Shown one piece after another: positions 48,752-49,545 of a stretch of 52,109 nt of DNA (positions are counted from its first letter, which is position 1; every line of letters begins with the position of its first letter). The notes under the pieces were generated by a model. That model searched no databases. It was not told the DNA's origin and saw only the letters and a list, made by a program, of their open reading frames with translations. The position numbers and the translations under genes were made by a program. The stretch comes from Escherichia coli (lineage in GTDB: Bacteria; Pseudomonadota; Gammaproteobacteria; Enterobacterales; Enterobacteriaceae): the NCBI RefSeq assembly GCF_003334815.1, contig NZ_QOWO01000029.1; one strand, written 5' to 3'.

Positions 48752-49545
48752 GTGGCAATGCTGGTTGCCGCAGGACAGTTTGCTGTTACATCTGTGTGGG
48801 AAAAGAACGCTGAGATTTGTGCCTCGTTGATGGCGCAGGCGGCGGAAAACGACGTATCGCTGTTTGTCCTGCCGGAAGCATTGCTGGCGCGCGATGATCA
48901 TGATGCAGATCTATCGGTTAAATCAGCACAGCTGCTGGAAGGCGAATTCCTCGGACTTTACGGCGAGAAAGTAAACGTAACATGATGACGACAATTCTGA
49001 CGATTCATGTTCCTTCAACGCCGGGGCGCGCATGGAATATGCTGGTGGCACTTCAGGCAGGAAACATCGTCGCCCGTTATGCCAAACTGCATCTCTATGA
49101 TGCATTTGCCATTCAGGAATCACGCCGTGTTGATGCTGGTAATGAAATCGCTCCGTTACTGGAGGTGGAAGGGATGAAGGTCGGTCTGATGACCTGTTAT
49201 GACTTACGCTTTCCAGAGCTGGCGCTGGCACAGGCATTACAGGGAGCTGAAATCCTGGTACTTCCTGCCGCCTGGGTTCGCGGGCCGCTCAAAGAGCATC
49301 ACTGGTCAACGTTGCTTGCCGCTCGTGCGCTGGATACCACCTGTTATATGGTGGCGGCGGGGGAGTGCGGGAACAAAAATATCGGTCAAAGCCGGATTAT
49401 AGATCCCTTTGGCGTCACCATTGCGGCAGCGTCAGAAATGCCTGCACTCATTATGGCGGAAGTGACGCCCGAACGTGTGCGTCAGGTGCGCGCGCAACTG
49501 CCCGTCTTAAACAACCGTCGCTTTGCGCCGCCGCAATTATTATGA
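48752..49545 (+). pseudogene. ybeM: Frameshifted carbon-nitrogen hydrolase (nitrilase-superfamily) gene
   Basis: Two overlapping ORFs in different frames (48752-48985 and 48982-49545) together span about 264 codons. The second carries the catalytic Cys context [12 protein letters not shown]. Confidence 0.8.

Follow-up and report, generated by a model that had tools for sequence, protein, structure and literature searches.

Results

Location and reading frames of ybeM

The window, i.e. the whole stretch of 52,109 nucleotides of Escherichia coli DNA that was analysed here, contains two open reading frames in the ORF list of the region from 48300 to 50000, both on the plus strand: the first extends from 48752 to 48985 (77 aa, GTG start) and the second from 48982 to 49545 (187 aa, ATG start). 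An earlier note on this DNA had described two ORFs of these lengths that lie in different frames and overlap at 48982-48985, and the list bears this out, the 4-nt overlap reading ATGA. Taken as one gene, the ybeM pseudogene covers 48758-49545 on the plus strand and measures 788 nt compared to 789 nt for the intact gene, which is classed as a deaminated glutathione amidase of the nitrilase superfamily. Mapping of the RefSeq CDS start onto the window places the true start of ybeM at the ATG at 48758, and a Shine-Dalgarno sequence AGGAGG can be read from the sequence at 48747-48752 (+), 5 nt upstream of this codon. Use of the GTG at 48752 as a start codon is unlikely; this triplet and the Shine-Dalgarno sequence overlap. 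Read from ATG 48758, ORF1 (48758-48985, +) comprises 75 codons, i.e. the authentic residues 1-66 followed by nine out-of-frame residues (LYGEKVNVT) and the stop codon TGA at 48983-48985. ORF2 (48982-49545, +) encodes residues 76-262 of the original protein and begins at the internal codons for Met76-Met77.

The gene is flanked by crcB (fluoride channel), which lies upstream on the minus strand, and by tatE and lipA downstream; this order, crcB-ybeM-tatE-lipA, is that of the E. coli ybeM locus. A 1,101-bp query around ybeM matches 5,425 of 5,426 complete E. coli genomes, several of them at 100% identity, and finds one place per genome (median 1). The region is, moreover, 100% identical to RefSeq loci labelled 'deaminated glutathione amidase, frameshifted'. 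A minus-strand sigma-70-like promoter match at 48731-48758 (TTGCCA, 16-nt spacer, TAAAAT; 10/12) is oriented towards crcB and shares sequence with both the start codon and the Shine-Dalgarno region of ybeM. In the 92-nt spacer between crcB and ybeM, it would suit a compact region for divergent control; about one such match is expected in shuffled sequence.

Protein family and active site

Both ORFs match the profile NF033621 (deaminated glutathione amidase), ORF1 with residues 3-66 at profile positions 2-65 (E 4e-24) and ORF2 with residues 2-186 at profile positions 76-260 of 260 (E 3e-103). These consecutive matches are far beyond chance and uphold the earlier proposal that the two frames are parts of one nitrilase-superfamily gene, ybeM, split by a frameshift. 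Measured against the curated cut-off of 355 bits, the protein obtained after repair of the frame scores 452 bits, and the ORFs of the window remain below it with 85.3 bits (ORF1) and 344.6 bits (ORF2). The locus descends from the NF033621 family, yet encodes no member of it. The reaction that defines this family is the cleavage of deaminated glutathione into 2-oxoglutarate and Cys-Gly.

The repaired protein belongs to the nitrilase superfamily, and all homologues carry PF00795 (CN_hydrolase). Among solved structures, it is most closely related to the Nit domain of Caenorhabditis elegans NitFhit (1EMS, E 3e-29), yeast Nit2 (4H5U, E 1e-26) and mouse Nit2 (2W1V), the E values of the three ranging from 3e-29 to 3e-22. 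NitFhit and yeast Nit2, which belong to branch 10 of the superfamily, match intact YbeM over its whole length and share its triad; they are, however, distant homologues of the intact gene only, as the copy in the window cannot make a complete domain. In the alignment with 1EMS, Glu40, Lys110 and Cys147 of YbeM pair with Glu54, Lys127 and Cys169, the residues that form the catalytic triad in the Nit domain of NitFhit. The corresponding codons are found at 48875-48877 (Glu40, in the motif LPE), 49084-49086 (Lys110) and 49195-49197 (Cys147), all on the plus strand, and the three residues are invariant in 17 enterobacterial orthologues. The presence of Cys147 in ORF2 agrees with the earlier observation that this frame keeps the catalytic cysteine context. 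In the window no single polypeptide holds the complete Glu-Lys-Cys triad, Glu40 being encoded by ORF1 and Lys110 and Cys147 by ORF2. Active homologues of Nit1 reportedly exist in E. coli too. A Glu-Lys-Cys triad of Nit1 is mentioned in PMC9913352, and PMC9913352 and PMC5714238, referring to Peracchi et al. 2017, describe Nit1 as a metabolite repair enzyme that hydrolyses deaminated glutathione (dGSH).

The AlphaFold model of intact YbeM (pTM 0.83, mean pLDDT 79.5) contains a helix formed by residues 63-72 and a strand formed by residues 78-86, both located in blocks with a pLDDT of ~95. The frameshift starts at residue 67, inside this helix. Residues 67-75 are absent from both fragments, so that half of helix 63-72 is gone.

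The lesion

To locate the lesion, the DNA of the window was aligned with three intact alleles, i.e. those of PigCaeca_1, an O157:H7 strain and the canine isolate strain 317. Where the intact alleles read CTCGGAC-G-TTTACGG, the window is without that G, which is the sole length difference between its ybeM and the three intact alleles. The missing nucleotide is the G of codon 67 (CGT), lost between 48956 and 48957 (+). The search for the exact indel by alignment to intact ybeM, as the earlier note had proposed, thus yields a 1-bp deletion; the frame break assumed at the junction of the two ORFs is real, but its site is not the ORF overlap, the lesion lying ~26 nt upstream of it. The context of the deletion (GGAC-G-TTTA) contains no homopolymer. 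Restoring the G gives a 262-aa protein that is identical to the translated PigCaeca_1 gene (RefSeq WP_000959109.1). The ATGA overlap arises because the TGA that closes ORF1 overlaps the two codons (ATG ATG) for Met76-Met77 of the intact protein.

The intact form WP_000959109.1, as found in BL21, O157:H7 and PigCaeca_1, shares its gene neighbourhood with the window, whereas its 262-aa ORF is uninterrupted and that of the window is broken at codon 67. Orthologues from Escherichia fergusonii, Citrobacter, Salmonella, Leclercia, Kosakonia and Enterobacter are all single 262-aa ORFs, and the intact state is therefore ancestral. The locus accordingly shows what marks a recent unitary frameshift pseudogene: a disrupting indel, a derived state and no second intact copy at this site.

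Frequency and annotation of the deletion allele

The frequency of both alleles was determined with an 80-nt query centred on the deletion and the corresponding 81-mer for the intact allele. The deletion 80-mer is present as an exact match in 859 of 5,425 complete E. coli genomes, wild isolates included, and the intact 81-mer in 3,534 of the 5,425; most of the other genomes differ by SNPs. RefSeq labels ybeM as 'deaminated glutathione amidase, frameshifted' in K-12 MG1655 and likewise in isolates from human stool (Mozambique), river water (Japan), a pig (Korea) and a frog farm (China). In the curated MG1655 record NC_000913.3, ybeM (b4581) is entered as a pseudogene at 658031-658818, and in an older gene list based on W3110 the two pieces carry the names ybeH and ybeM (PMC10652928), ORF1 corresponding to the former ybeH. 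In the deletion-bearing wild isolates examined, the genes beside ybeM, i.e. pagP, cspE, crcB, tatE and lipA, are all intact, and the ybeM break is therefore not general assembly noise.

Other truncated forms of YbeM are found in public data. Two of them, P0040 (215 aa) and P0049 (214 aa), are abundant truncated YbeM proteins in a large protein collection (contigs L008-L013). Recurrent independent inactivation of ybeM was considered on their account and rejected: their source contigs also carry split lipA and pagP genes, and the lesions lie in homopolymers, so that both proteins are probably long-read assembly errors. More generally, the genes broken beside truncated YbeM on public contigs are lipA, pagP or tatE, and in strain UTME-9 every gene of the region is marked frameshifted, which probably reflects assembly errors as well. 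Strain SL124 (NZ_CM194971.1) contains the intact 81-mer, yet it matches the 1,101-bp query over 1,101 bp (99.8% identity) and therefore has to contain another 1-bp deletion at some point between 48600 and 49700.

Relation to K-12 and to intact strains

Over 22.9 kb around ybeM, 6-11 SNPs separate the window from deletion-bearing strains, and 9-11 SNPs and one gap separate it from the intact-allele strains PigCaeca_1 and LZHX12. No SNP in these 22.9 kb separates the five deletion alleles (window and four strains) from the two intact ones. Since the intact-allele strains are no more distant from the window than the deletion-bearing ones and no SNP sets them apart, the deletion is recent and arose on a haplotype of which the intact form is still in circulation. 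A single origin of the deletion is likely given the non-repetitive context of the lesion; a SNP marker for such an origin was sought and rejected, as none separates the two groups in the 22.9 kb. Between 29000 and 51953, the window comes closest, among the strains compared, to the pig isolate PEC399 (6 differences), and three C>T changes, at 32432, 36467 and 42267, are private to the window.

The ybeM gene of K-12 MG1655 (b4581, formerly ybeH and ybeM) has the locus, the 1-bp deletion and the two ORFs in common with the window and matches the 80 nt around its lesion exactly. That the window is K-12 MG1655 itself can be ruled out by 9 mismatches in 22,954 positions, by the lack of the substitutions V33A and V37A, and by an IS10-type insertion in ybeF. 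These two substitutions result from non-synonymous T>C changes in MG1655 ybeM at positions that correspond to 48855 (V33A) and 48867 (V37A) of the window, and they are likewise absent from KMi025, PEC399 and ES10, the three wild isolates with the deletion that were included in the comparison. They lie 12 nt apart beside the catalytic Glu40 and make up two of the four SNPs private to MG1655 in the 22.9 kb; V37 is invariant in 17 orthologues. Such changes are consistent with relaxed constraint and may represent decay after inactivation or, alternatively, old mutagenesis. The K-12-type 80-mer is present as an exact match in 365 genomes; if all of these carry the deletion, ~490 genomes resemble the window in that their deletion is not accompanied by the K-12 signature.

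Discussion

The sequence from 48758 to 49545 is, with a probability of roughly 0.95, a unitary ybeM pseudogene, i.e. a recent natural loss-of-function allele and not a case of regulated recoding. The pseudogene reading, which the earlier note had put first, gains from the single G missing relative to intact alleles, from the RefSeq label 'frameshifted' and from the pseudogene entry b4581 in NC_000913.3. The intact gene would encode a Nit1-like dGSH amidase of 262 aa, which would clear a useless by-product of transaminase action on glutathione. With the G of codon 67 lost, translation from ATG 48758 would run off-frame after residue 66, add nine wrong residues and terminate at the TGA at 48983-48985, leaving residues 76-262 in the -1 frame; ORF2 would at best be made as a separate fragment, via re-initiation at the overlapping ATGA. 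Because Glu40 is encoded in ORF1 and both Lys110 and Cys147 in ORF2, no single product would possess the full active site. From the split triad, together with the removal of half of helix 63-72, we infer that the deletion allele has lost YbeM activity. The deletion has arisen recently and segregates naturally in a lineage that resembles phylogroup A and to which K-12 belongs. As a pseudogene, ybeM is already known and annotated, and it is an ordinary one.

The Shine-Dalgarno sequence and the start codon of ybeM are still intact; ybeM is among the NsrR-bound promoters listed from an earlier K-12 ChIP-chip study, and in strain CFT073, which has an intact ybeM, NsrR gives a ChIP peak close to the gene, whose expression is down under NO stress (PMC5320621). 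On these grounds the pseudogene may still be transcribed in K-12, and the ATGA stop/start overlap could allow translation of ORF2. According to one alternative, which we consider very improbable, the deletion allele is partly alive: re-initiation of ORF2 at ATGA, or a rare -1 slip at GTA-AAC, would give a fragment, a non-covalent two-piece enzyme or trace amounts of full-length protein with some dGSH amidase activity or another role. If true, such residual function could help to explain the persistence of the allele in ~16% of sequenced E. coli. Its presence in ~16% of complete genomes shows only that the loss is tolerated; neutrality does not follow. In MG1655, ybeM has been used as a neutral pseudogene integration site for tetA/tetR (PMC4788846) and for prs-purF (PMC11731478). 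A search of the literature for proteomics or frameshifting of ybeM gave only strain-engineering uses and gene lists.

Two further explanations, which appear equally improbable and slightly more so than the last, would give the split arrangement a function. According to the first, the ORFs are read as one through programmed -1 ribosomal frameshifting or transcriptional slippage, so that near full-length amidase is provided at a regulated low level, a candidate that the earlier note had raised. ORF2 does lie in the -1 frame of ORF1, and a -1 shift within the overlap of the two frames would yield a fused product. The only stretch in which such a shift could rejoin them is confined to the 64 nt from 48922 to 48985 (+), as the -1 frame is open only after the TAA at 48919-48921 and frame 0 closes at the TGA. 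This stretch contains a partial A-site slippery triplet, GTA-AAC, at 48970-48976, but the full A-GTA-AAC does not permit re-pairing in the P-site. A slippery heptamer at the junction, for which the earlier note had proposed to look, could not be found: no X XXY YYZ motif is present in the zero frame across ORF1 or in any frame within 48915-48985. The +1 frame holds stop codons, which rules out a prfB-type shift. Transcriptional slippage typically takes place at a homopolymer of at least seven A or T; the junction has no run of five or more identical bases, and the only such runs of the gene, G5 at 49359 and A5 at 49375, are far downstream. The 90 nt downstream of the slippery triplet (48977-49066) have a minimum free energy of -20.9 kcal/mol compared to a mean of -21.7 for shuffled sequences (z = +0.26) and thus show no stimulatory structure, and an Rfam scan of the whole window detected no RNA element in or beside ybeM.

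The distribution of the break is also adverse to recoding. Programmed frameshifts are conserved features and not recent minority mutations. The break in ybeM is not shared by any orthologue and is missing from most E. coli, being present in only 859 of 5,425 genomes, and a single base separates it from an intact allele that co-circulates. With dnaX and the transposases of the IS1 and IS3 families, ybeM of the window shares two overlapping ORFs of which the second is in the -1 frame; those systems, however, have a conserved slippery heptamer (e.g. A AAA AAG), stimulatory elements and a split that is kept in relatives, none of which is seen here. The programmed-frameshift candidate is consequently not supported, the break being a derived minority allele.

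The second of these explanations assumes a split enzyme or two independent genes, with ORF2 being translated by termination-reinitiation at ATGA and acting either jointly with the ORF1 fragment or alone. An ATGA stop/start overlap is a typical coupling arrangement, and catalytic residues are kept in both pieces. The ATGA is, however, a by-product of the ATG ATG that encodes Met76-Met77, and upstream of 48982 there is no strong Shine-Dalgarno sequence. Homologues normally consist of one 262-aa ORF, and none of them is divided into two genes; neither piece reaches the NF033621 cut-off, and both lack residues 67-75 and with them half of a confidently modelled helix. Finally, the view that the frameshift stems from faulty sequencing or assembly and that the gene is intact in the strain can be dismissed as practically negligible, for although some public truncated YbeM do resemble errors (homopolymer lesions, lipA and pagP broken on the same contigs) and in UTME-9 the whole region is frameshifted, the G missing here lies outside any homopolymer, the curated reference of K-12 has the identical deletion, as do 859 independent complete genomes, and the flanking genes pagP to lipA are intact in the deletion-bearing wild isolates examined.

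The unitary pseudogene thus remains as the preferred reading, and as such ybeM is a textbook case of a frameshift pseudogene restricted to certain strains. It is already flagged by annotation pipelines and matters little. What is useful is the exact position of the lesion, the G of codon 67 at 48956/48957 instead of the ORF overlap, and the recognition that the deletion allele is no laboratory artefact of K-12 but a natural polymorphism, carried by about one in six of the complete E. coli genomes. The allele would disable a metabolite-repair enzyme. Given its distribution, deletion-bearing strains such as K-12 and intact strains such as BL21 and O157:H7 probably differ in dGSH repair, which is relevant to anyone who studies this pathway in E. 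coli.

Further observations in the window

The ybeM sequence also contains, at 49007-49177 (+), an out-of-frame ORF of 56 codons that starts with MFLQRRGAH. MFLQRRGAH is the product of a 29-bp fragment of UTI89 ybeM whose over-expression from pBAD24 is reported to lead to filamentation, which was treated as an artificial effect (PMC6206680).

Downstream of lipA, the gene of the LysR-type regulator ybeF is interrupted by the IS10-type element, and the end of the window (51952-52109) is the outside end of this IS10 / ISVsa5-type element of the IS4 family (CTGAGAGATCCCCTCATAATTTCCCC...). The ybeF::IS junction was found in none of the 5,426 complete E. coli genomes searched, and the insertion is therefore private to the source strain.

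Elsewhere in the window, the Rfam matches above the gathering score comprise the sRNA ES036 at 865-906 (-), the sRNA STnc70 at 29434-29527 (+), the rnk leader at 34740-34848 (-) and the cspA-type thermoregulator model at 47834-48276 (+). The last of these extends across the region of cspE, the cold-shock-family gene that is annotated there in matching genomes.
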